Assembly (NCBI RefSeq): GCF_001677475.2
Contig: NZ_CP015229.1
DNA from: Escherichia coli
Lineage (GTDB): Bacteria; Pseudomonadota; Gammaproteobacteria; Enterobacterales; Enterobacteriaceae
DNA: 64,000 bases
Strand: one strand, 5' to 3'
Part shown: piece by piece, positions 4,117 through 47,000 of the stretch
How the letters are laid out: each line of letters opens with the position of its first letter
Numbering within the stretch: the stretch's first letter is position 1
Notes under the pieces: generated by a model
The model's database searches: none
The model's input: only the letters and a program-made list of their open reading frames with translations
What the model was told of the DNA's origin: nothing
Position numbers and translations under genes: made by a program

Positions 4117-5595
4117 TCACCCCGCCCGTAAAAACATTTTCATTTTTTCGCTGCGACAAAACTGACGCTTCACTTCCACCACCAGCGGATGGCGCGACAG
4201 CACAATCATCACCACAAACGCCAGCACGCCCGCGGCTATTTGCACCGCCAGCAGCATCCCCAGCGCCAGTTGCCCTTTCAGTACAATGCCCAGTGCATAA
4301 CTGACCACCAGCGTCGGCAGCGAGAGATAAAACGGTAGCCACAAACTCAGGATGTACTGGCGATAACTGGAACCGAGCACCGGTTTAATCATCACGAAAT
4401 AGCTCAGAATGGTGTTGATAATCTGCACCAGCAGGAAACCGAGCGTGACGCCGATTGCGCCCGCCATCTGCCCACCAATGATGATTGCCGGAATAAACAG
4501 AAATGTTTTGAATACGTTGAATTTAAAGCTGATATCCACCCGCGCTTTCGCCATCAGCAGCGAACCAATCGGGTTACCCACTGAGCGCAGTAGCCCCACC
4601 ACACACAGCAATTGCAGCACCGGAATAATGCTGTTCCACTTTTCGCCAAATACCAGCGGTACAAAGTTATTCGACACCACCATTAGCCCCAGCAGCGCCG
4701 GAAAGTTGATAATCCCCACTACCGACAGCAGCTTGTAGAAGTTGACGCGCAGCTTTTCGGTGTCGTCCTGAATTTTGGCAAATGCCGGAAACAACACGCG
4801 GGTGATGATTGGGTTCAGCTTCATCGGCGGCACAACTGCCACGTTGTACGCCAGGTTGTATCCCCCTGCCACGCCCGCGCCGAGAATACGCGCCAGCACC
4901 AGCGTTGAAAGGTTGGTGTTGAGATAGTTGATGATGCTGTCCGCCGTCAGCCAGGCACCAAAGCGTAAGTTCGGTGCCACCGACGCCAGCGAGAAATGCA
5001 GACCGGGGCGATAAATTTTGCGGCCAAAGTAGCCAAACAGCAGCGTTCTTACCGCACTATTGACCAGATAACCGAGGATCGCGGTCATCGCCAGCGGCCA
5101 GAAATGGGCGCTAACCACCGTAAAAGTAAAGCCCGCCAGCACCGCGCTGGTTTCGATCATGCCGATTTTGTTGAACTCCAGCTCTTTTTGCATCAACGCG
5201 CGGAACTGCTGCCCGTGGGGGATCACCACAAACGCCAGTGACAATGTTTTAATCAACGGTGCCAGGTCCGGGTTATTCAGCACGTCGCCGATGAGATCAC
5301 TCAACAAAAACACTGCCACGCACACTACAATCCCCAGCCCGACGTTCAGCCAGTACAGCGTGGTGAGTTCCAGGTGGCTGATTTCTTTTCGCTGAATAAT
5401 CGAGTTAGCGATACCGAAGTCAGAAAGCGTATCTGCCAGCGCGATGATCACCAGCGACACGGTAAGCAAACCGAACTGGTGGTTGTCAATAATCCGCGCC
5501 AGCACGGTCATCTGTACCAGCCCGAGGCCGATGATGATCACCGTAGCAATCGCCGACCACTTCGCGCCGCTGATGGTTTTTTCACGTAAGCTCAT
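4117..5595 (-). CDS. wzxC: Colanic acid repeat-unit flippase WzxC
   Basis: 492-aa polytopic membrane ORF MSLREKTISGAKWSAIATVIIIGLG...; Wzx/MOP-type flippase; synteny. Confidence 0.9.
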   Translation of the reverse strand: MSLREKTISGAKWSAIATVIIIGLGLVQMTVLARIIDNHQFGLLTVSLVIIALADTLSDFGIANSIIQRKEISHLELTTLYWLNVGLGIVVCVAVFLLSDLIGDVLNNPDLAPLIKTLSLAFVVIPHGQQFRALMQKELEFNKIGMIETSAVLAGFTFTVVSAHFWPLAMTAILGYLVNSAVRTLLFGYFGRKIYRPGLHFSLASVAPNLRFGAWLTADSIINYLNTNLSTLVLARILGAGVAGGYNLAYNVAVVPPMKLNPIITRVLFPAFAKIQDDTEKLRVNFYKLLSVVGIINFPALLGLMVVSNNFVPLVFGEKWNSIIPVLQLLCVVGLLRSVGNPIGSLLMAKARVDISFKFNVFKTFLFIPAIIIGGQMAGAIGVTLGFLLVQIINTILSYFVMIKPVLGSSYRQYILSLWLPFYLSLPTLVVSYALGIVLKGQLALGMLLAVQIAAGVLAFVVMIVLSRHPLVVEVKRQFCRSEKMKMFLRAG

Positions 5596-33712: not shown

Positions 33713-35065
33713 GTGTTTATTGGTTTTGATTACGGTACAGCAAACTGTTCAGTGGCGGTCATGCGCGACGGTAAGCCGCAATTACTGAAAATGGAAAACG
33801 ACAGCACGCTGCTGCCTTCAATGCTTTGCGCGCCAACGCGTGAAGCGGTAAGCGAATGGCTGTACCGCCATCATGATGTTCCGGCAGACGACGATGAAAC
33901 GCAGGCGCTGTTGCGTCGGGCGATTCGTTATAACCGCGAAGAAGATATCGATGTTACGGCGAAAAGCGTGCAGTTCGGTCTTTCCTCACTGGCACAGTAC
34001 ATTGATGATCCAGAAGAAGTGTGGTTTGTGAAATCACCAAAATCGTTCCTCGGTGCCAGCGGCTTAAAACCGCAGCAGGTAGCGCTGTTTGAGGATCTGG
34101 TCTGCGCAATGATGTTACACATTCGCCAACAGGCGCAGGCGCAGCTGCCGGAGGCAATTACTCAGGCGGTGATTGGTCGCCCGATCAACTTCCAGGGGCT
34201 GGGCGGTGATGAAGCAAACACCCAGGCGCAAGGGATTCTGGAACGCGCGGCGAAGCGTGCCGGGTTTAAGGATGTGGTATTCCAGTACGAGCCGGTCGCG
34301 GCCGGGCTGGATTACGAAGCCACCTTACAGGAAGAAAAACGGGTGCTGGTGGTGGATATCGGCGGTGGTACGACTGACTGTTCATTGCTGCTGATGGGGC
34401 CGCAGTGGCGTTCGCGTCTCGATCGTGAAGCCAGCCTGCTGGGTCACAGTGGTTGCCGTATTGGCGGTAACGATCTGGATATCGCACTGGCGTTTAAAAA
34501 CCTGATGCCGTTACTGGGCATGGGTGGCGAAACCGAAAAAGGCATCGCCCTGCCGATTCTGCCGTGGTGGAATGCGGTTGCCATCAACGACGTACCTGCG
34601 CAAAGTGATTTCTACAGTAGTGCCAACGGTCGTCTGCTTAACGATCTGGTACGCGATGCCCGCGAACCGGATAAAGTGGCCCTGTTACAGAAAGTCTGGC
34701 GTCAGCGTTTAAGCTATCGCCTGGTACGTAGCGCAGAAGAGAGCAAAATTGCGCTTTCAAGCGTAGCGGAAACCCGCGCCTCACTGCCGTTTATCAGCGA
34801 TGAACTGGCTACGCTGATTAGCCAGCAAGGGCTGGAAAGCGCCCTCAACCAGCCACTGGCGCGGATTCTGGAACAGGTGCAACTGGCGCTGGATAACGCC
34901 CAGGAAAAACCGGATGTTATCTATCTGACCGGCGGTAGCGCCCGTTCACCGCTGATTAAAAAAGCGCTGACAGAACAGTTGCCGGGCATTCCGATTGCAG
35001 GTGGCGATGACTTTGGCTCCGTCACCGCCGGGCTGGCACGCTGGGCGGAAGTGGTGTTTCGTTAA
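33713..35065 (+). CDS. yegD: Hsp70-family (actin-like ATPase) protein YegD
   Basis: ORF 33650..35065; likely GTG start giving MFIGFDYGTANCSVAVMRDGKP... (450 aa); DnaK-like phosphate-1 motif. Confidence 0.85.
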   Translation: MFIGFDYGTANCSVAVMRDGKPQLLKMENDSTLLPSMLCAPTREAVSEWLYRHHDVPADDDETQALLRRAIRYNREEDIDVTAKSVQFGLSSLAQYIDDPEEVWFVKSPKSFLGASGLKPQQVALFEDLVCAMMLHIRQQAQAQLPEAITQAVIGRPINFQGLGGDEANTQAQGILERAAKRAGFKDVVFQYEPVAAGLDYEATLQEEKRVLVVDIGGGTTDCSLLLMGPQWRSRLDREASLLGHSGCRIGGNDLDIALAFKNLMPLLGMGGETEKGIALPILPWWNAVAINDVPAQSDFYSSANGRLLNDLVRDAREPDKVALLQKVWRQRLSYRLVRSAEESKIALSSVAETRASLPFISDELATLISQQGLESALNQPLARILEQVQLALDNAQEKPDVIYLTGGSARSPLIKKALTEQLPGIPIAGGDDFGSVTAGLARWAEVVFR

Positions 35066-35072
35066 TTGAAAA

Positions 35073-35118
35073 CTGGCTCAGCAGCGGCTTAAATCAGCCT
35101 GCGCCTGAGCCAGTTTTT
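35073..35118 (+). terminator. Candidate yegD terminator lying in the 3' end of the convergent yegI
   Basis: ctggctcag-(23 nt)-ctgagccag followed by ttttt. Confidence 0.35.
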
Positions 35119-37018
35119 CTGCCGCCTGACGTAACGGTTCCATCAACGGCATGGTCCGTGCTGGAGCATGAAGGCGGAATCGCTGCAACTCTGTCGCGCC
35201 GACTGTCAACGCCGATTCCAGCCGATGTCGTTTGGCGGCCATTTTTGCCATTACCGCTTGTCTGTCTGCAGGCGTTATCGCTTCATTCGGCCTGAACACA
35301 AAACGGCGTTCACAGCTCGCTTTCCAGTCGATAACCGCCTGGGTCAGATGGTCGCCAAACCCTTTCACTTGCTTAACACCACGACGGGTAACATCCGCTG
35401 CTGTTTCAATACCAAAGGACCGTAACGCCGCTTTACGCGCAGGGCCAACGCCGGGAATAGAGGCAACATCAATAAAAAATCCCTCCAGAAACTTCTGCTT
35501 CTGCCGTTCCCTTGCAGTGTCATGAAGTGCTGCCAGAGCGCGTTTCTCTTCTTCCGGTAACCCGAGAATTTCGTTCTTCATTTTTTCGAGCATCGTCCGT
35601 TTGGCGATAAAACCTTCCAGCCCGCCCAACTGTTGGATCTGGCTGACTAAATGGTCATAGTCCATTTTTGCGCGATTAAAAGCCTCTCTTCGTCGCTGGA
35701 CTTCTGCTTTGTACGCTTTGCTTGTCAGGCTGCCAATAATCCAGATAGCCGCCAGCACGGGAACCAAAATGATATAACGCGGTTCTACCTGAAGGCCGCA
35801 AAGCAGCAGCGATAATGCTGACAGTGCGATCTCAATCAGAATGATGTATTCACGCCGTAACAGGCCTAAAGGAAGCGGCCTGCCAGTCGGTTGGAAATGA
35901 TCGGGTAATGGTAATTGCAATGCTGGCGGTGCTACTGACGCCATCACCATCGCCCAGACTTTCGCCAGCACAAAATCACCACTGGTGGTAATGACCTCTT
36001 CGCCGAGATCAATAAAATAGATAACGCCTTGATTATCCAGCGCACACCACGGGCAGTCAGTCAAATGACCGGGGTAAACATGCATTGCCGAAACGGTACA
36101 TTTCTTTAACTGTTGGCGTAGTAAATCAAGTGCCGCTACCCACGCTTTTGCCGTCGGACGCGCGGTTGCCACGCCACTTTCCGTGAATGCCTGCTGAAAC
36201 ATGGCTTCAACATCGCCCGGTAACATCGACAGCGGAATAGATCGTGGCGGCGGTTTTAAACCACGCCGCTGATTATCTGACGCGTAGGCATAACGGAAAT
36301 GAGCAATATCCGTCTCCAGCGCATTCCCCGCATCAGAGATAAGCGGTACACCGGAATAAGGATGCCGACCACCAAACAAGACGTGAAAAATCAGCAACGC
36401 AAGGCCAAAATTATCGTGATTCGCGGTGCGTTCAAAGCCGACAAATGATGGCAATGTTTGCAGCTCTGGCGGCGTAAAATGCGACACGCCGACTTCGCAT
36501 AAATGCAGCGTGCCATTGGCGTTAATCTGAAAGGAGTCGCTATCAATCAACACCACTTTGCTGTCGCGACCTACCATAAAGCTGTTCTGGTTTACGTCCC
36601 CCACGACGTGCCCGTGCTCGTGAACCGTAGCAAAAGATGAAGCAATATTGCGCGCAACATAGAGTAGAAAATCCCACGCACAATGAGGGTAACTCTGGCG
36701 ACGATGTGCCGGGCTATAGATCATATGAATCGGTTCTTTACCAGAAACTTTTGGCATCATAAAACCGATAACTTTTCCGCCTCGTCCACCGTGAAGCGTT
36801 GCCTGCGGCCAGGCGACATAATTCAGCAACTGCGCGTCAGCTGTCGCAGCCATAAAGGCAAGTTTGTCCTGTTTTAATGCGGGTGGCGGCGTGTGATAAA
36901 TCTTGGCGACGCTATCGACAAACTCCTCGATATCATAAACCGCGCCTTCGCCACCTTTGCCCAGTTCACGGCCTGGCGTAACGCACTCACCAGTAGCAGT
37001 ATATAAAGTGTGTTTCAT
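35078..37018 (-). CDS. yegI: Ser/Thr protein kinase-like protein YegI
   Basis: ORF 35078..37027; ATG at 37016-37018 ([11 protein letters not shown]...) overlaps the pphC stop as ATGA; protein-kinase-like N-terminal half, internal TM segment. Confidence 0.8.
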   Translation of the reverse strand: MKHTLYTATGECVTPGRELGKGGEGAVYDIEEFVDSVAKIYHTPPPALKQDKLAFMAATADAQLLNYVAWPQATLHGGRGGKVIGFMMPKVSGKEPIHMIYSPAHRRQSYPHCAWDFLLYVARNIASSFATVHEHGHVVGDVNQNSFMVGRDSKVVLIDSDSFQINANGTLHLCEVGVSHFTPPELQTLPSFVGFERTANHDNFGLALLIFHVLFGGRHPYSGVPLISDAGNALETDIAHFRYAYASDNQRRGLKPPPRSIPLSMLPGDVEAMFQQAFTESGVATARPTAKAWVAALDLLRQQLKKCTVSAMHVYPGHLTDCPWCALDNQGVIYFIDLGEEVITTSGDFVLAKVWAMVMASVAPPALQLPLPDHFQPTGRPLPLGLLRREYIILIEIALSALSLLLCGLQVEPRYIILVPVLAAIWIIGSLTSKAYKAEVQRRREAFNRAKMDYDHLVSQIQQLGGLEGFIAKRTMLEKMKNEILGLPEEEKRALAALHDTARERQKQKFLEGFFIDVASIPGVGPARKAALRSFGIETAADVTRRGVKQVKGFGDHLTQAVIDWKASCERRFVFRPNEAITPADRQAVMAKMAAKRHRLESALTVGATELQRFRLHAPARTMPLMEPLRQAAEKLAQAQADLSRC

Positions 37019-37776
37019 GGTAACCACAGCGCCAGTGCCAACGTTTTATCATCATCGGTACGCTCGTTTACCGCCGGGCTGGACAAAAACTGCTTTAACA
37101 ATTCAGGTAATAAATCGAGTTGTTCCTGCGTTGCTGACACCAGCCCATTGAAAAACGGGGTAAAGAAAGGCACATGGGGAGAATTATCCAGCATATTTAA
37201 CGCCAGCCGCTGGATACCATCCGTAAATGCTGCAACTTTGTGCGCACGCTCAGTGCTGGTGAAAGTTTCCAGTCTGGAAACCGCATCTTCATCGGTAATG
37301 AAGTGCGTCATGTTGGCATATTCACCCACCATCGGCGTGAGCGGCAGTTGCAGACCGTGCCCCAAATCTACCACCACACCGCCGTCGCCAATCTGCATAA
37401 TCAGGGTGCCATTAGCTGATGAAATCAATCCCAGAAACGTGCAGGCAAAATCGCGAACAGCTAATTCTTTGGCTTCCGCCTCGGCAAAAAGTCGCTGACG
37501 AACGGTCAGCACAATATCCGTTGCGAGGACATCATTGAGCCCCAATTCCCCGCCCTGCACTTTTTGCATCATATAAGCCATCGCTTCATTGACGGCGAGC
37601 ATCGCGCCTTCGCCACCCTGCGAGACGCTACCTGCGCCATCGGCGACAAATACCGACAATAATGGCTGCTGGTCATTTAGCCAGGCAACCTGCATCTGGC
37701 AGGCATCCTGGCAAGGCAAGTCCGCGCTGATGTGCGACGTTCCAACGGTTGATGCATAGACCAGACGCCAGCTCAC
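37015..37776 (-). CDS. pphC: PP2C-family Ser/Thr phosphatase PphC (YegK)
   Basis: 253-aa [30 protein letters not shown]...[12 protein letters not shown]...; start overlaps the yegL stop by 4 bp. Confidence 0.85.
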
Positions 37777-38432
37777 ACTGACGTCCAGCCTTTTGGCGCT
37801 TCCAGCACAACTTCCGTTCCCGGCGTGGAGCGGGAAACCGAACGCAGCGAACTGGATAACCAGCTAAACAGTTCACGGAATTGTAATCCCTGCAGTGGCA
37901 AAGGCTGACGAACGCTGATTTGTGCCAGCGTCTTCATATCCGCCCCCTGAACGCCGATGGCAAAGAAGGCAAACTTCTTACCTTCTTCCCCCTGAAACAC
38001 TTTGTTGGCGGCTGCCTGCCACTCATCGGTTGGTGCACCATCAGTGATCATGAAAATCCACGGACGATAATAGGAAATACCATTGGCGCGATACTCACGT
38101 TTGCGCTCCTCAACCATATCCAGGGCTTTGGTAATGGCGGCCCCCATTGGTGTATCGCCCTGGGCAAACAGGATGGGCGGGAAAAAGTTAGCGGCGCTGG
38201 TAAAGGGTTGTTCCACATGCACTGGGCCGAACGTCACAATACCAAGTTCCACTCTTTTTAAGGCCAGCGGGTCGGCAAGCAGCTCATCGCGAAAGGTAAC
38301 CAATCCGGCGTTAAGTTCATTAATGGGTCTACCGTTCATCGAACCAGAAACATCCAGCAGCAAAATGCAGGGGCAACGTGGTTCCGGGTTACTGGCAAAA
38401 TCGCTGGTGGCAAACGTGATTTGTTCGCTCAT
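37773..38432 (-). CDS. yegL: von Willebrand factor A domain protein YegL
   Basis: 219-aa ORF with vWA MIDAS motif (LLLDVSGSM). Confidence 0.85.
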
Positions 38433-38613
38433 AAGAAATCCTTTCTTAGAGAATTATTGAGGTCCGGTATCATACCGATTGCAATAATGAAATAAGAGCA
38501 AACGAAGAAACTTTCAGAATTAGTCCCGGCGGCGCAGAAAATTTTGCTATTCGCCTCGCAAGAACGGAGAGCCGTCGATTGACACTAAGGGCGGAGTGAC
38601 ATAATTTCAGGAG

Positions 38614-38763
38614 TGAGGGTTAGGGAGAGGTTTCCCCCTCCCCCTGGTGTTCTTAGTAAGCCTGGAAGCTAATCACTAAGAGTATCACCAGTATGATGAC
38701 GTGCTTCATCATAACCCTTTCCTTATTAAAAGCCCTCTTCTCCGGGAGAGGCTTTCCCGTTTC
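38614..38763 (+). ncRNA. sibA: Sib antitoxin sRNA, copy 1 (SibA-like); ends approximate
   Basis: Promoter ttgaca (38579-84), 17-bp spacer, taattt; antisense to the whole ibs ORF; terminator hairpin agccctcttctccgggagaggct plus tttcccgttt. Confidence 0.6.
38653..38712 (-). CDS. ibsA: Ibs type I toxin peptide, 19 aa (MMKHVIILVILLVISFQAY)
   Basis: Minus-strand atgatgaagcacgtcatcatactggtgatactcttagtgattagcttccaggcttactaa; hydrophobic Ibs-family peptide fully overlapped by the antisense Sib. Confidence 0.8.
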   Translation of the reverse strand: MMKHVIILVILLVISFQAY

Positions 38764-38948
38764 AGCGTCCCGCTGAAATCGTCGGCTTACCTCCTTTCGC
38801 CCTGAATGCAGTCTATCGCTAACGCGTGAACAAAATAGTTTCCTCTGTGATTATTGCGTAACGACTCGCAAAGAATATTTGCTGGCAGGATCGCAGACTG
38901 CAAAGCCTGCAGATTGACAATCTTATCGTGAAGGCATACTTTCAGGAG

Positions 38949-39090
38949 TGAGGGTAGAGCGGGGGTTCCCCCGCCCTGGTAGTCTTAGTAAGCCGGGAAG
39001 CTTATGACTAAGAGCACCACGATGATGATCCACTTCATCATGACCCTTTCCTTATTTAAGGCCCCTTCCTCGGGAGGGGCTTTCCCGTTT
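38949..39090 (+). ncRNA. sibB: Sib antitoxin sRNA, copy 2; ends approximate
   Basis: Promoter ttgaca (38914-19), N17, tacttt (38937-42); terminator gccccttcctcgggaggggc plus tttcccgttt. Confidence 0.6.
38985..39041 (-). CDS. ibsB: Ibs type I toxin peptide, 18 aa (MMKWIIIVVLLVISFPAY)
   Basis: Minus-strand atgatgaagtggatcatcatcgtggtgctcttagtcataagcttcccggcttactaa. Confidence 0.8.
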   Translation of the reverse strand: MMKWIIIVVLLVISFPAY

Positions 39091-39276
39091 CAGCGTCCCG
39101 CTGAAATCATCGGCTTACCTCCTTTCGCCCTGAATGCAGTCTATCGCTGACTTGCGGATAAAATAGTTTCACATGTGATTATTGCGTAGCGTCTCGCAAA
39201 GAATATTTGCTGGCAGGATCGCAGACTGCAAAGCCTGCAGATTGACAATCTTATCGTGAAGGCATACTTTCAGGAG

Positions 39277-39418
39277 TGAGGGTAGAGCGGGGTTTCCCCC
39301 GCCCTGGTAGTCTTAGTAAGCTGGCCAGCTAATGACTAAGAGCACCACGATGATGAGTATCTTCATCATGACCCTTTCCTTATTTAAGACCCCTTCCTCG
39401 GGAGGGGCTTTCCCGTTT
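39277..39418 (+). ncRNA. Sib antitoxin sRNA, copy 3; ends approximate
   Basis: Promoter ttgaca (39242-47), N17, tacttt (39265-70); terminator hairpin 39388-39408 plus T-run. Confidence 0.6.
39313..39369 (-). CDS. Ibs type I toxin peptide, 18 aa (MMKILIIVVLLVISWPAY)
   Basis: Minus-strand atgatgaagatactcatcatcgtggtgctcttagtcattagctggccagcttactaa. Confidence 0.75.
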   Translation of the reverse strand: MMKILIIVVLLVISWPAY

Positions 39419-40895: not shown

Positions 40896-43800
40896 TGCAG
40901 GTGTTACCCCCGAGCAGCACAGGCGGCCCGTCGCGCCTGTTTATTATGCGTCCTGTCGCCACCACGCTGCTGATGGTGGCGATCTTACTCGCCGGGATTA
41001 TCGGTTATCGCGCCCTGCCCGTTTCGGCGCTGCCGGAAGTGGACTATCCGACCATTCAGGTGGTCACGCTCTACCCAGGTGCCAGCCCGGATGTCATGAC
41101 CTCTGCCGTTACCGCGCCGCTCGAACGCCAGTTCGGGCAGATGTCCGGCCTGAAACAGATGTCGTCGCAAAGTTCCGGCGGTGCGTCAGTTATCACTTTG
41201 CAGTTCCAGCTAACATTACCGCTCGATGTCGCCGAGCAGGAAGTGCAGGCCGCGATTAACGCTGCGACCAACTTGTTGCCGAGCGATCTGCCTAACCCGC
41301 CGGTTTACAGCAAAGTGAACCCGGCAGATCCGCCGATCATGACGCTCGCCGTCACCTCAACCGCCATGCCGATGACGCAAGTGGAAGATATGGTGGAAAC
41401 CCGCGTCGCGCAGAAAATCTCGCAGATTTCCGGTGTCGGCCTGGTGACGCTTTCCGGCGGGCAGCGTCCGGCTGTTCGCGTCAAACTTAACGCTCAGGCG
41501 ATTGCCGCCCTCGGCCTGACCAGCGAAACCGTGCGCACCGCCATTACCGGCGCTAACGTCAACTCGGCAAAAGGTAGCCTCGACGGCCCTTCCCGTGCGG
41601 TCACGCTTTCCGCGAACGACCAGATGCAATCCGCCGAAGAGTATCGCCAGCTGATCATCGCCTACCAGAACGGCGCACCGATTCGTCTGGGCGATGTCGC
41701 AACTGTAGAGCAAGGTGCAGAAAACAGCTGGCTCGGCGCGTGGGCGAACAAAGAACAGGCCATTGTGATGAATGTTCAGCGCCAGCCCAGTGCTAACATT
41801 ATCTCCACCGCCGACAGCATCCGGCAGATGCTGCCACAGCTCACCGAAAGTCTGCCGAAATCGGTGAAGGTAACGGTACTTTCTGACCGCACCACCAATA
41901 TTCGCGCATCCGTCGATGATACTCAGTTTGAATTGATGATGGCTATCGCGCTGGTAGTCATGATTATCTACCTGTTTTTACGCAATATTCCGGCGACCAT
42001 CATTCCCGGTGTTGCCGTGCCGCTGTCGTTAATCGGCACTTTTGCGGTTATGGTGTTTCTCGATTTTTCAATCAATAACCTGACGCTGATGGCGTTAACT
42101 ATCGCCACCGGATTCGTGGTCGATGACGCCATCGTGGTGATCGAAAACATTTCCCGCTATATCGAAAAAGGCGAAAAACCGCTGGCGGCGGCGCTCAAAG
42201 GCGCGGGTGAGATCGGCTTTACCATTATCTCGCTGACCTTCTCGCTGATTGCGGTGTTGATCCCACTGCTGTTTATGGGCGATATCGTCGGGCGATTGTT
42301 CCGCGAATTTGCTATTACTCTGGCGGTAGCGATTTTGATCTCAGCGGTGGTGTCGCTGACCCTGACACCGATGATGTGCGCGCGGATGCTCAGCCAGGAG
42401 TCGTTGCGTAAACAGAACCGCTTCTCCCGTGCCTCGGAAAAAATGTTCGACAGGATAATCGCCGCCTATGGTCGTGGACTGGCGAAAGTGCTGAATCATC
42501 CGTGGCTGACCTTAAGCGTGGCGCTCAGCACGCTGCTGCTTAGCGTACTGCTGTGGGTGTTCATTCCGAAAGGTTTCTTCCCGGTACAGGACAACGGCAT
42601 TATTCAGGGCACCTTGCAGGCACCGCAATCCAGCTCCTTTGCCAATATGGCCCAGCGGCAACGCCAGGTCGCGGATGTGATTTTACAAGATCCGGCAGTG
42701 CAAAGCCTGACCTCATTTGTTGGCGTTGATGGCACTAACCCGTCGCTGAACAGTGCGCGTTTACAGATCAACCTCAAACCGTTGGATGAACGTGATGATC
42801 GGGTGCAAAAAGTCATCACCCGTCTGCAAACGGCGGTGGATAAAGTGCCGGGCGTCGATCTCTTCTTGCAACCAACGCAGGACCTGACCATCGATACTCA
42901 GGTCAGCCGCACCCAGTACCAGTTTACCTTGCAGGCCACGTCACTGGATGCGCTCAGTACCTGGGTGCCGCAGCTCATGGAAAAACTCCAGCAATTGCCA
43001 CAGCTTTCTGATGTCTCCAGCGACTGGCAGGACAAAGGGCTGGTGGCGTATGTCAATGTTGATCGCGACAGCGCCAGCCGTCTGGGGATCAGCATGGCGG
43101 ATGTCGATAACGCCCTGTACAACGCGTTTGGTCAGCGACTGATTTCCACTATTTATACTCAGGCTAACCAGTATCGCGTGGTGCTGGAACACAACACCGA
43201 AAATACCCCAGGCCTCGCGGCGCTGGATACCATTCGCCTGACCAGCAGCGACGGTGGCGTGGTGCCGTTAAGCTCAATTGCCAAAATTGAGCAGCGTTTT
43301 GCGCCACTTTCCATCAACCATCTGGATCAGTTCCCGGTAACGACCATCTCCTTTAACGTGCCGGATAACTATTCGCTGGGCGATGCGGTGCAGGCGATTA
43401 TGGACACCGAAAAGACGCTGAATCTACCGGTGGATATCACCACGCAGTTCCAGGGCAGCACCCTCGCCTTCCAGTCGGCGCTTGGCAGCACTGTCTGGCT
43501 GATTGTCGCGGCGGTGGTGGCGATGTATATCGTGCTCGGCATTCTGTACGAGAGCTTTATTCACCCGATCACCATTCTCTCGACGCTACCCACCGCAGGG
43601 GTCGGCGCGCTGCTGGCATTAATGATTGCCGGTAGCGAACTGGATGTGATTGCGATTATCGGCATTATTTTGCTGATCGGTATCGTGAAGAAGAACGCCA
43701 TCATGATGATCGACTTCGCGCTGGCTGCTGAGCGTGAGCAAGGCATGTCGCCGCGCGATGCAATCTACCAGGCTTGTCTGTTGCGTTTTCGTCCGATCCT

Positions 43801-44017
43801 GATGACCACTCTGGCGGCACTGCTTGGCGCGCTGCCGCTGATGTTGAGTACCGGGGTCGGCGCGGAACTGCGTCGTCCGTTAGGTATCGGCATGGTCGGC
43901 GGTCTGATTGTCAGCCAGGTGCTGACGCTGTTTACCACGCCGGTGATTTATTTGCTGTTCGACCGCCTGGCATTGTGGACCAAAAGCCGCTTTGCCCGTC
44001 ATGAAGAGGAGGCGTAA
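40895..44017 (+). CDS. mdtB: RND multidrug efflux transporter MdtB
   Basis: 1040-aa [37 protein letters not shown]...; AcrB/RND superfamily; start overlaps the mdtA stop (TGATG). Confidence 0.9.
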
Positions 44018-47000
44018 GTGAAGTTTTTTGCCCTCTTCATTTACCGCCCGGTGGCGACGATTTTACTGTCGGTCGCCATTACCCTTTGCGGCATACTGGG
44101 CTTCCGTATGCTGCCGGTCGCCCCGCTGCCGCAGGTCGATTTTCCGGTGATTATGGTCAGCGCCTCGCTGCCCGGTGCGTCACCTGAAACAATGGCGTCT
44201 TCCGTTGCCACGCCGCTGGAGCGCTCACTTGGGCGCATTGCCGGAGTCAGCGAAATGACCTCCAGCAGTTCGCTCGGCAGCACGCGGATTATTTTGCAGT
44301 TTGATTTTGACCGGGATATCAACGGCGCAGCGCGTGATGTGCAGGCGGCGATCAACGCTGCACAAAGTTTGCTGCCCAGCGGGATGCCAAGCCGTCCGAC
44401 CTATCGCAAAGCGAACCCGTCGGATGCGCCAATTATGATCCTGACGCTAACCTCCGATACTTATTCGCAAGGTGAACTGTACGATTTCGCCTCAACACAG
44501 CTTGCCCCGACGATTGCGCAAATCGACGGTGTCGGTGATGTCGATGTTGGCGGCAGCTCGCTGCCCGCCGTGCGCGTCGGGCTGAATCCGCAGGCGCTGT
44601 TTAATCAGGGCGTATCGCTGGACGACGTACGCACTGCCATCAGCAATGCCAACGTGCGTAAACCGCAGGGGGCGCTGGAAGATGGCACTCACCGCTGGCA
44701 GATCCAGACCAATGATGAGCTAAAAACCGCCGCTGAATATCAGCCGTTGATTATTCATTACAACAACGGCGGCGCGGTTCGTCTGGGTGATGTGGCGACG
44801 GTGACAGACTCGGTGCAGGATGTGCGCAACGCCGGGATGACCAACGCCAAACCGGCTATTTTGCTGATGATCCGCAAGCTGCCGGAAGCCAATATTATCC
44901 AGACGGTTGACAGCATCCGGGCAAAATTACCGGAGTTGCAGGAGACCATTCCGGCGGCGATTGATCTGCAAATTGCCCAGGATCGCTCCCCCACCATTCG
45001 CGCCTCGCTGGAAGAAGTCGAGCAAACGCTGATTATCTCGGTGGCGCTGGTGATTCTGGTGGTGTTTTTATTCCTGCGCTCGGGTCGCGCCACTATTATT
45101 CCCGCCGTTGCGGTGCCGGTTTCGCTGATTGGTACGTTTGCGGCGATGTACCTGTGCGGTTTCAGTCTCAATAATCTTTCGTTAATGGCGCTCACCATCG
45201 CTACTGGTTTCGTGGTGGATGACGCCATCGTAGTGCTGGAAAACATTGCCCGTCATCTGGAAGCGGGGATGAAACCGCTACAGGCCGCGCTGCAAGGCAC
45301 CCGTGAAGTCGGATTTACGGTGCTGTCGATGAGTCTGTCACTGGTGGCGGTGTTCCTGCCGCTGCTGTTGATGGGCGGATTGCCGGGCCGACTGTTACGC
45401 GAATTTGCCGTGACGCTTTCAGTCGCCATTGGGATTTCGTTGCTGGTTTCCCTCACGCTAACGCCGATGATGTGCGGCTGGATGCTAAAAGCCAGCAAGC
45501 CGCGCGAGCAAAAGCGACTGCGTGGTTTTGGTCGCATGTTGGTAGCCCTGCAACAAGGCTATGGCAAGTCGCTGAAATGGGTGCTCAATCATACCCGTCT
45601 GGTTGGCGTGGTGCTGCTTGGCACCATTGCGCTGAATATCTGGCTATATATCTCGATCCCGAAAACCTTCTTCCCGGAGCAGGACACCGGCGTGTTGATG
45701 GGCGGGATACAGGCGGATCAGAGTATTTCGTTTCAGGCAATGCGCGGCAAATTGCAGGATTTCATGAAAATTATCCGTGACGATCCGGCAGTGGATAATG
45801 TCACCGGATTTACCGGCGGTTCGCGAGTGAACAGCGGGATGATGTTTATCACCCTCAAGCCACGCGACGAACGCAGCGAAACGGCGCAGCAAATTATCGA
45901 CCGTCTGCGGGTGAAGCTGGCGAAAGAACCGGGGGCGAATCTGTTCCTGATGGCGGTACAGGATATTCGCGTTGGTGGGCGTCAGTCGAACGCCAGCTAC
46001 CAGTACACGTTGTTATCCGACGACCTGGCGGCACTGCGCGAATGGGAGCCGAAAATCCGCAAAAAACTGGCGACGTTGCCAGAATTGGCGGACGTGAACT
46101 CCGATCAGCAGGATAACGGCGCGGAGATGAATCTGGTTTACGATCGCGACACCATGGCGCGGCTGGGAATCGACGTGCAGGCCGCCAACAGCCTGTTAAA
46201 TAACGCCTTCGGTCAGCGGCAAATCTCGACCATTTACCAGCCGATGAACCAGTACAAAGTGGTGATGGAAGTGGATCCGCGCTATACCCAGGACATCAGC
46301 GCGCTGGAAAAAATGTTCGTTATCAATAACGAAGGAAAAGCGATCCCACTGTCGTATTTCGCTAAATGGCAACCGGCGAATGCCCCGCTGTCGGTGAATC
46401 ATCAGGGATTATCGGCGGCCTCGACCATCTCGTTCAACCTGCCGACCGGAAAATCGCTCTCGGACGCCAGTGCGGCGATCGATCGCGCAATGACCCAGCT
46501 TGGTGTGCCTTCGACGGTGCGCGGCAGTTTTGCCGGAACAGCGCAGGTGTTCCAGGAGACGATGAACTCACAGGTGATCCTGATTATCGCCGCCATCGCC
46601 ACGGTCTATATCGTGCTGGGTATCCTTTACGAGAGTTACGTACATCCGTTGACGATTCTCTCCACCCTGCCCTCGGCGGGCGTTGGGGCGCTGTTGGCGC
46701 TGGAGCTGTTCAATGCCCCGTTCAGCCTAATCGCCCTAATAGGGATCATGCTATTAATCGGCATCGTGAAGAAAAACGCCATTATGATGGTCGATTTTGC
46801 GCTTGAAGCCCAACGGCACGGTAACCTCACGCCGCAGGAAGCTATTTTCCAGGCCTGTCTGCTGCGTTTTCGCCCGATTATGATGACTACCCTGGCGGCG
46901 CTGTTTGGCGCGCTGCCGCTGGTATTGTCGGGCGGTGACGGTTCGGAGCTGCGGCAACCCCTGGGGATCACCATTGTCGGCGGTCTGGTAATGAGCCAGC

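Follow-up and report, generated by a model that had tools for sequence, protein, structure and literature searches.

An uninterrupted yegL–pphC–yegI operon in Escherichia coli and its likeness to TerY-P phospho-signalling triads

We analysed a 64,000-nucleotide (64-kb) stretch of the Escherichia coli contig NZ_CP015229.1, hereafter the window. ORF calls over this stretch revealed three intact genes on the minus strand at 35078–38432, the ends of which agree exactly with the coordinates given in an earlier note on the same DNA: yegL (37773–38432, ATG start, 219 aa), pphC, also named yegK (37015–37776, GTG start, 253 aa), and yegI (35078–37018, ATG start, 646 aa). They encode a vWA protein, a PP2C-type Ser/Thr phosphatase and a protein assigned, from its ORF and conserved motifs, as a membrane-anchored Hanks-type Ser/Thr kinase. 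The triad sits in the chromosomal slot between yegD and the sib/ibs repeats plus mdtA, and the gene order in the window (dgcE, alkA, yegD, yegI, pphC, yegL, three SIB copies, mdtA, mdtB) agrees with that of annotated genomes. The proteins are 95–98% identical to those of K-12 and 98% identical to their best E. coli match; compared with K-12 and WP4-S18-ESBL-07, identity is 98% for YegL, 95–98% for PphC and 97–98% for YegI. Synteny, this level of identity and the domains described below bear out the gene names proposed in the earlier note, and no frameshift, which would have spoken against its description of the locus, is present in any of the three ORFs.

The length of 646 aa is that recorded in RefSeq for 'protein kinase YegI' in strains in which the three genes are contiguous. 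The locus shares with that of REL606 and O157:H7 the genes, their order, the ATGA at the pphC/yegI junction, the 646-aa YegI and the flanks (yegD, sib/ibs and mdtA), and we found no functional difference between them. At the DNA level, none of 5,426 complete E. coli genomes is more than 97.3–97.8% identical to the window, which we therefore assign to a somewhat divergent Escherichia lineage with a mosaic allele.

YegL matches the Pfam family VWA (E=3.5e-9). Its MIDAS motif, D27-x-S29-x-S31 (38340–38354, minus strand), is completed by T94 and D131, all five residues being invariant in 58 homologues. The same is true of S193, S195 and S200 in a Ser-rich C-terminal tail (W191–S202; 37827–37862, minus strand), which we consider a candidate phospho-acceptor on the basis of this conservation. 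PphC matches the Pfam family PP2C_2 (PF13672, E=1.8e-50), with D24, D46, G47, D131, D186, D242 and D243 invariant in the homologue alignment. Published work established that PphC has Mn2+-dependent activity, that it dephosphorylates YegI, and that the two proteins act as a cognate pair in vitro (10.1101/303594).

The only Pfam match of YegI is HHH_5; the scan returned no protein-kinase family, and kinase-domain matches in NCBIfam and PADLOC are weak (E=3e-6 to 5e-3). The identification of YegI as a kinase therefore rests on its conserved motifs and on published assays. Indeed, the Hanks catalytic set (G20–G25, K39, D141, D159/D161, E185) is invariant or nearly so, the residues invariant in 48 homologues being G22, G23, K39, D141, D159, S162, E185, D202 and R287, and YegI has been reported to autophosphorylate and to need K39, D141 and S162 for its activity (10.1101/819920). 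C-terminal to the kinase domain, YegI carries a zinc-ribbon-like motif predicted to bind zinc, C307-x5-H313-x8-C322-P-W-C325 (36044–36100, minus strand), whose four ligands, together with W324, are invariant in the 48 homologues. Further downstream lies a two-helix membrane hairpin (approximately residues 389–437; 35708–35854, minus strand), with hydrophobic segments at this place in 46 of the 48 homologues; YegI is an inner-membrane protein with both termini in the cytoplasm (10.1101/819920).

The C-terminal tail of YegI contains, between long helices, a putative helix-hairpin-helix (HhH) module (approximately residues 515–560; 35339–35476, minus strand) with the hairpins GVGPARK and GFG. The assignment is weak, the HHH_5 match having an E-value of 0.0025. 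G525, G553, G555 and W565 are invariant in the 48 homologues. The AF2 model of the C-terminal 200 residues (pLDDT 92.8) is all-helical, with a coiled coil and the HhH and no beta-barrel. A Foldseek search of this model against the PDB gave a local match to the N-terminal domain of Rad51/Dmc1, which we take to be an HhH fold, with a probability of 0.84–0.96 and a non-significant E-value of about 1; coiled-coil noise dominated the other matches.

This combination of enzymes recalls the TerY-P triad (Anantharaman, Iyer & Aravind 2012), which is described in Bell et al. 2024 (PMC11090510) and PMC4978471 as a vWA protein, a PP2C phosphatase and an STK-ZnR kinase. The E. coli triad has in common with it a vWA protein with an intact MIDAS (DxSxS...T...D), a PP2C phosphatase encoded in the same operon (pphC overlaps yegL by 4 bp), a Ser/Thr kinase followed, at the motif level, by a C-terminal zinc ribbon (C307/H313/C322/C325), and the grouping of all three into one mobile cassette. 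It differs in that YegI adds the membrane hairpin and the coiled-coil/HhH tail, and in that yegL–pphC–yegI stands alone, next to neither McrBC/CoCoNuT, Ter nor other DNA-processing genes; the match of YegL to the PADLOC TerY profile, detailed below, is marginal.

A search for homologous triads, as the earlier note had proposed, yielded 79 loci from many phyla. The three triad genes are the only ones that recur among these loci, and no fourth conserved gene or effector was found beside them; the single additional cluster that recurs starts from an ORF antisense to pphC and seems spurious. Homologues are also carried by 39 non-Escherichia plasmids or megaplasmids, and no PphC homologue was found in phage genomes. 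We consider it probable, with good confidence, that the locus is the ancestral, uninterrupted form of the operon and constitutes a self-contained, horizontally mobile phospho-switch of TerY-P architecture, working as follows. A single mRNA started upstream of yegL would carry all three genes, and ribosomes ending one gene would restart on the next at GTGA or ATGA; because the overlaps would let ribosomes restart, kinase and phosphatase would be made in a fixed ratio. YegI, responding at the membrane to a metal or to nucleic acid, would phosphorylate the Ser-rich tail of YegL and/or other targets, and PphC would reset this phosphorylation. One ancient event would have set yegJ, as part of an AT-rich cassette of 725 bp, between pphC and yegI in 36% of E. 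coli genomes, K-12 among them; bringing its own divergent, H-NS-bound promoters, the cassette would have broken the coupling and made yegI a separate transcription unit.

The pair might instead be an ordinary housekeeping Ser/Thr signalling module whose targets are cellular proteins, in stationary phase for instance, with YegL as a mere scaffold. The operon belongs to the core of E. coli, YegI and PphC are cognate in vitro, as stated above, and yegI has been reported to be weakly expressed in stationary phase and to be mutated repeatedly in the long-term evolution experiment (10.1101/303594, 10.1101/819920). We nevertheless regard this explanation as possible but doubtful: the closest relatives outside Escherichia are found in Burkholderiales (about 65% identity) and not in other enterobacteria, the three triad genes stay together from phylum to phylum while none of their neighbours is conserved, and the sole known substrate of the pair is YegI itself.

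The likeness to TerY-P raises the question of an anti-phage or conflict function, in which the kinase would sense incoming nucleic acid through its HhH and trigger a phosphorylation-dependent response. Besides the three-part architecture, including the zinc-ribbon-like motif after the kinase, this idea draws on the spread of the triad as a self-contained cassette, patchy across phyla and present on conjugative megaplasmids, on the variable slot that adjoins the sib/ibs toxin–antitoxin repeats, and on immunity-protein-type Pfam matches (Tli3, Imm52 and SUKH) in the corresponding slot of Superficieibacter. In addition, PMC11090510, citing Gao et al. 2020, ascribes a stand-alone defence role to TerY-P-like modules whose kinase bears an OB fold. 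The operon of Gao et al. likewise encodes these three classes of enzyme, but its kinase has a C-terminal OB fold, which YegI lacks, having the zinc-ribbon-like motif, the membrane hairpin and the HhH instead. Moreover, the PADLOC defence models match the triad unconvincingly: the TerY model (PDLC02224) gives YegL a marginal match confined to residues 90–145 (E=0.017, 12.6 bits), PphC matches nothing, YegI matches generic kinases weakly (PD-T4-6/MkoA), and no TerY-P phosphatase or kinase model was hit. No effector gene is conserved beside the triad, the literature found reports no phage phenotype, and the locus is present in 5,417 of the 5,426 complete E. coli genomes, strain ET5 being one of the rare natural exceptions, a near-universality that sets it apart from typical accessory defence islands. 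An anti-phage role thus seems to us rather unlikely.

The earlier note had described the genes as joined by ATGA overlaps. Both 4-bp overlaps exist, and the one between pphC and yegI is indeed ATGA (37015–37018, minus strand; pphC TGA at 37017–37015, yegI ATG at 37018–37016), as reported for REL606 and O157:H7 (10.1101/819920), but the one between yegL and pphC is GTGA (37773–37776, minus strand; yegL TGA at 37775–37773, pphC GTG at 37776–37774). Inspection of the sequence upstream of the three starts showed that the operon has one strong ribosome-binding site, AAGGA (38439–38443, minus strand), 6 nt 5' of the yegL ATG, and that good sites are absent before pphC and yegI. Of 74 homologous loci from many phyla, 50 join yegL to pphC by a 4-bp overlap and 19 join pphC to yegI in this way, most of the other pphC/yegI junctions having a gap of at most 20 bp. 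Because they are kept in homologous triads across phyla, we take the overlaps to be non-accidental, and from their geometry and the weak ribosome-binding sites at pphC and yegI we infer translational coupling.

The overlaps could, alternatively, reflect mere compact packing of genes that are translated independently, since 4-bp overlaps are the most frequent overlap class in bacterial operons and most distant homologues join pphC and yegI by a short gap without overlap. This is unlikely in view of the retention of the yegL/pphC overlap across phyla and of the restriction of AAGGA to yegL. A promoter and terminator scan of the operon in the window gave nothing above shuffled expectation, with no promoter called 5' of yegL, and robust expression of the operon could not be detected in published work (10.1101/303594, 10.1101/819920); co-transcription and coupling are for these reasons given here as predictions.

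We then compared the pphC/yegI junction with that of K-12, where yegJ lies on the plus strand between the two genes. The earlier note described this arrangement correctly and was right in seeing no room for yegJ in the DNA analysed here: tblastn with K-12 YegJ (E<=1e-3) detected no homologue anywhere in the 64 kb. The same note had offered the K-12 form as a derived insertion. It is derived, as the outgroups discussed below are contiguous, but it is not a clean insertion. Blastn breakpoints and alignments showed that K-12-type alleles have 785 bp containing yegJ (NC_000913.3, 2150935–2151719) in place of a 50-bp segment (36974–37023 of the window, minus strand), so that yegI differs over roughly its first 17 codons and pphC in its final two. 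K-12 YegI begins MKTNIKVFTSTGELTTL, whereas that of the window begins differently (15 residues), and PphC ends in AE in K-12 and in LP in the window. The K-12 segment, which splits the operon, consists of yegJ (DUF2314, PF10077), a 199-bp divergent promoter spacer of 29% GC, and a hairpin after yegJ; the GC content of the insert is 37.7%, compared to 52%. The yegI–yegJ spacer contains promoter-like sites, and an H-NS-flagged RpoD-binding site has been published for it (PMC3946193). The hairpin after yegJ is an 11-bp perfect one and resembles a terminator stem.

Two divergent yegJ-bearing alleles agree in their breakpoints and in the N-terminus of YegI, and the arrival of yegJ looks like a single event. 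We rejected a transposon origin, since a search for target-site duplications or terminal inverted repeats in and around the K-12 segment, along the lines of the flanking-repeat check suggested in the earlier note, gave only short chance matches. The donor was sought among the 79 triad loci, none of which contains yegJ. Sliding-window identity between K-12, the window and the best contiguous match revealed a mosaic locus (90–100%) with no clean gradient of divergence around the insertion, a pattern that is silent on the size of the recombination tract.

The contiguous junction is present in 3,471 (64%) and the yegJ form in 1,934 (36%) of the 5,426 complete E. coli genomes, the carriers of the latter including clinical and animal isolates. 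In a GTDB scan that returned no representatives of E. coli, E. fergusonii or E. albertii, and hence with incomplete outgroup sampling, Escherichia sp. E1V33, MOD1-EC7003, E. whittamii, strain E69 and Klebsiella spallanzanii were all contiguous with −4/−4 junctions; the triads of Frankia, Variovorax and other distant taxa are contiguous as well. Because four non-coli Escherichia lineages, K. spallanzanii and distant phyla agree in this respect, the yegJ-bearing form is, judging from these alignments, derived and the contiguous form ancestral as well as commoner. The converse, a K-12-like ancestor from which a precise loss of yegJ produced the contiguous form, is extremely improbable and already close to refuted: yegJ is admittedly an old resident of the neighbourhood, lying directly downstream of yegD, between alkA and mdtA, in Superficieibacter electus and a related MAG, and being equally diverged from its E. 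coli counterpart at the DNA level (~75% identity, vs 74% for yegD), but the sampled outgroups are contiguous, the deletion would have had to restore exactly both the ATGA at the pphC/yegI junction and the canonical N-terminus of YegI, and the Superficieibacter locus, as it has no triad, is silent on yegJ inside the triad.

We also entertain, as quite improbable, a pair of more speculative ideas. In the first, the triad is an unrecognized stand-alone member of the TerY-P conflict systems, in which the membrane kinase may detect nucleic acid at the inner membrane via its cytoplasmic HhH and phosphorylate the Ser-rich tail of YegL, with PphC resetting the system. In the second, yegJ is a long-standing partner of yegD, next to which it lies in Superficieibacter, and has moved into the triad in one third of E. 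coli. Such a relocation, if true, would have given rise to a naturally occurring form of the switch with an 'uncoupled kinase'.

The operon is real but ordinary and already known, and the window has the majority form; the ATGA overlap and the difference between K-12 and B strains with respect to yegJ have been published (Rajagopalan and Dworkin 2018, 2020; Göpel et al. 2026; 10.1101/303594, 10.1101/819920, PMC13232886). What our analysis adds is the population frequencies and exact breakpoints of the yegJ difference, the match to the TerY-P architecture (invariant MIDAS, zinc-ribbon-like Cys/His motif, membrane hairpin and HhH tail) and the presence of yegJ beside yegD in Superficieibacter. 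With 1,934 genomes carrying it, yegJ is more widespread than the published statement confining it to K strains implies. K-12 has an atypical genotype at this locus, and in yegJ-bearing strains YegI differs at its N-terminus and has a promoter region of its own, associated with H-NS; because the contiguous form accounts for 64% of complete E. coli genomes, the regulation of YegI and PphC would be better studied in a contiguous strain, of which REL606, O157 and CFT073 are examples. Finally, the TerY-P-like architecture, the serine tail of YegL and the HhH tail of YegI lead to concrete hypotheses on the substrate of this kinase and the signal to which it may respond.

The three genes of the triad lie on the minus strand as intact open reading frames: yegL (38432..37773, 219 aa, ATG start), pphC, also called yegK (37776..37015, 253 aa, GTG start), and yegI (37018..35078, 646 aa counted from the ATG; the ORF lister placed the start at a GTG at 37027, three codons upstream). 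YegL, PphC and YegI have identical lengths in the RefSeq annotation of the most similar E. coli genome, and the flanks correspond to the K-12 neighbourhood, with dgcE, alkA and yegD next to yegI, and the sib/ibs repeats, mdtA and mdtB beyond yegL. The earlier note gave the coordinates and overlap geometry correctly but was wrong to write of ATGA overlaps in the plural: in the sequence, the yegL stop and pphC start overlap as GTGA (37776..37773, minus strand), and the pphC stop and yegI start as ATGA (37018..37015, minus strand). A good ribosome-binding site (AAGGA) precedes yegL alone; the sequence upstream of pphC and yegI contains none worth the name. This pattern fits translational coupling across the triad, short of proving it. 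On the far side, yegD (plus strand) and yegI (minus strand) converge with 12 bp between their stop codons (35066-35077), as in K-12; a terminator cannot fit there, and the transcripts of the two genes would therefore overlap.

In K-12 MG1655, the order is yegI, yegJ (on the opposite strand), pphC, yegL, and a search of the whole 64-kb window returned no YegJ homologue, which confirms the earlier claim that yegJ is absent here and present in K-12. In the alignment, 50 bp of the window (36974-37023) correspond to 785 bp in K-12. This segment includes a different yegI 5' end, whose product starts MKTNIKVFTSTGELTTL instead of the 15-residue N-terminus of the window (the two ends are related in protein, with DNA about 50% identical, as read from both sequences), together with a 199-bp spacer (29% GC), yegJ and a perfect 11-bp hairpin; PphC ends in LP in the window and in AE in K-12. 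The K-12 form had been proposed to be a derived insertion. Its derived status is upheld by contiguous outgroups; a clean insertion is not what the alignment gives, since 785 bp stand for 50 bp. Nor did the suggested flanking direct repeats turn up: no target-site duplication was found at the borders of the K-12 segment and no terminal inverted repeat around it. The spacer contains eight promoter-like sites versus 2.8 expected from shuffled sequence, and is listed as a binding site for RpoD holoenzyme with H-NS, with predicted divergent yegI and yegJ promoters (PMC3946193). The K-12 YegJ N-terminus, MKKILLMLSLLFFTTAGFS (5186-5260 of the K-12 locus, L001), resembles a Sec signal peptide. YegJ is listed as cytoplasmic, the two-hybrid clones begin at residue 16, and the protein binds RNase E and is toxic on overproduction (Göpel et al. 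2026, PMC13232886).

The triad is near-universal in E. coli (5,417/5,426 complete genomes); among the nine genomes missing it, ET5 retains only yegD and an ibs gene. The contiguous junction occurs in 3,471 of the 5,426 genomes and the yegJ segment in 1,934, which together account for almost all of the 5,407 genomes matching the junction query. Although yegJ alleles span 90% to 100% identity, the divergent allele of the blood isolate MS14387 has the same breakpoints and YegI N-terminus as K-12, which points to one old event at the origin of the yegJ form. For the direction of change we turned to a PphC scan with one genome per species, which returned 79 loci (the E. coli, E. fergusonii and E. 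albertii representatives were not among them). As for the homologous triads that the earlier note proposed to look for, all three genes are present in 74 loci, always in the order yegL-pphC-yegI, with a 4-bp overlap at the yegL/pphC junction in 50 of them and at the pphC/yegI junction in 19, the remainder of the latter being mostly gaps of at most 20 bp. Both overlaps are 4 bp in Escherichia sp. E1V33, Escherichia sp. MOD1-EC7003, E. whittamii, the divergent strain E69 and Klebsiella spallanzanii. Because these outgroups are contiguous and YegJ is absent from all 79 loci, the contiguous form is, on an incomplete sampling of close relatives, judged to be the ancestral one, with the K-12 form derived from it.

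Outside E. coli, YegJ has its closest relatives (75-76%) in Superficieibacter electus and in a metagenome-assembled genome related to it, where the order is alkA, an MBOAT operon, yegD, yegJ, mdtA, the last step being direct or via an island of immunity-type genes. In both, yegJ lies directly downstream of yegD (L082 6001-6462 and L086 7001-7462) without the kinase triad. In S. electus, genes with immunity-protein-type Pfam matches (Tli3, Tle3_C, Imm52, SUKH) occupy the stretch before mdtA, which marks the yegD-mdtA slot as a variable hotspot. Since yegJ and yegD are equally divergent between Superficieibacter and E. coli (75% and 74% DNA identity), yegJ looks like an old yegD neighbour in this chromosomal slot rather than an arrival from a distant source. 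The divergent yegI 5' end of K-12 suggests that recombination may have brought in the yegJ form from an unsampled lineage with yegI-yegJ-pphC already in place.

YegL matches Pfam VWA (E=3.5e-9), and its MIDAS residues (D27, S29, S31, T94, D131) and three serines of its C-terminal tail are invariant in 58 homologues. PphC matches PP2C_2 (E=1.8e-50), with D24, D46, G47, D131, D186, D242 and D243 invariant. The Pfam scan gave no kinase match for YegI; a 48-homologue alignment shows that the kinase motifs are kept (Gly-rich loop, K39, D141, D159/D161, S162, E185, D202, R287), that a C307-H313-C322-C325 motif C-terminal to the kinase domain is invariant, that 46/48 homologues have a hydrophobic hairpin at about 389-437, and that the conserved C-terminal region carries GVGPARK and GFG hairpins. 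This protein also matches Pfam HHH_5 (E=0.0025), and its last 200 residues are modelled by AlphaFold as all-helical with confidence (pLDDT 92.8). Foldseek matched this model to the Rad51/Dmc1 N-terminal domain, which we take to be a helix-hairpin-helix (HhH) fold, only locally and with a non-significant E-value despite a high probability (0.84-0.96). PphC is a Mn2+-dependent phosphatase that dephosphorylates YegI, the only known substrate (10.1101/303594), and neither pphC nor yegI is robustly expressed in the laboratory (10.1101/303594, 10.1101/819920). PphC is also the fastest-evolving protein of the locus within Escherichia (83-93% identical against L003, L004, L005 and L027, four Escherichia comparison loci; YegL 95-98%, YegI 91-96%, YegD 97-99%), and DNA identity between K-12 pphC and contiguous alleles falls to about 90% near window position 37300-37600.

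This motif set (MIDAS vWA, PP2C, kinase followed by a zinc ribbon) is that of the TerY-P triad, for which a role as a metal-sensing phosphorylation switch has been hypothesised (PMC11090510). The triad could be viewed as a mobile, conflict-type module: no other genes recur among the 79 loci, the nearest non-Escherichia PphC relatives after K. spallanzanii are from Burkholderiales (about 65% identity), and homologues occur on 39 non-Escherichia plasmids or megaplasmids. PLSDB also includes several E. coli "plasmid" records of 4.8-4.9 Mb with the locus (H110, H111, H113); these are evidently chromosomes, so E. coli matches there should not be taken for plasmid carriage. A known defence system is a different matter: PADLOC models did not recognise the locus, no triad was found in phage genomes, and the triad is near-universal in E. 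coli. As the stand-alone antiphage variant of TerY-P has an OB-fold kinase (PMC11090510) whereas YegI has an HhH tail, the locus is not placed in the validated Gao-type defence family and is filed as the orthologue of a known E. coli operon, with TerY-P architecture.

The window itself (compared over 34800-38700 and 41000-45000) shares no more than 97.3-97.8% identity with any complete E. coli genome in RefSeq, whether at this locus or at mdtBC, and 90-94% with other sampled Escherichia species; it thus belongs to a lineage close to, yet outside, the sampled E. coli genomes, which leaves our conclusions unaffected. Stretches 100% identical to strain WP4-S18-ESBL-07 nevertheless alternate with stretches at 92-95%, indicating a divergent lineage with mosaic recombination. 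Between yegL and mdtA lie three tandem SIB antitoxin RNA copies on the plus strand (38579-38727, 38914-39056 and 39242-39384; Rfam RF00113, 138-150 bits). K-12 has two (sibA, sibB), WP4-S18-ESBL-07 three ibs genes and MS14387 four; strains thus differ in how many copies of this type I toxin-antitoxin repeat they carry.

The triad finding is not new: Rajagopalan and Dworkin (10.1101/303594, 10.1101/819920) described both the ATGA overlap of REL606 and O157:H7 and the yegJ interruption in K strains, whose possible regulatory effect they discussed, and Göpel et al. 2026 (PMC13232886) displayed the synteny of the locus. Our additions are modest: the exact breakpoints, the altered gene ends, the genome-wide frequencies, the polarity given by the outgroups, the position of yegJ next to yegD in Superficieibacter, and the zinc-ribbon, HhH and serine-tail features. 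These frequencies contradict the published confinement of yegJ to K strains. Export of YegJ, if true, could be relevant to the damage to the envelope that accompanies its overproduction, and E. coli genomes without the triad, such as ET5, could serve as natural null backgrounds.
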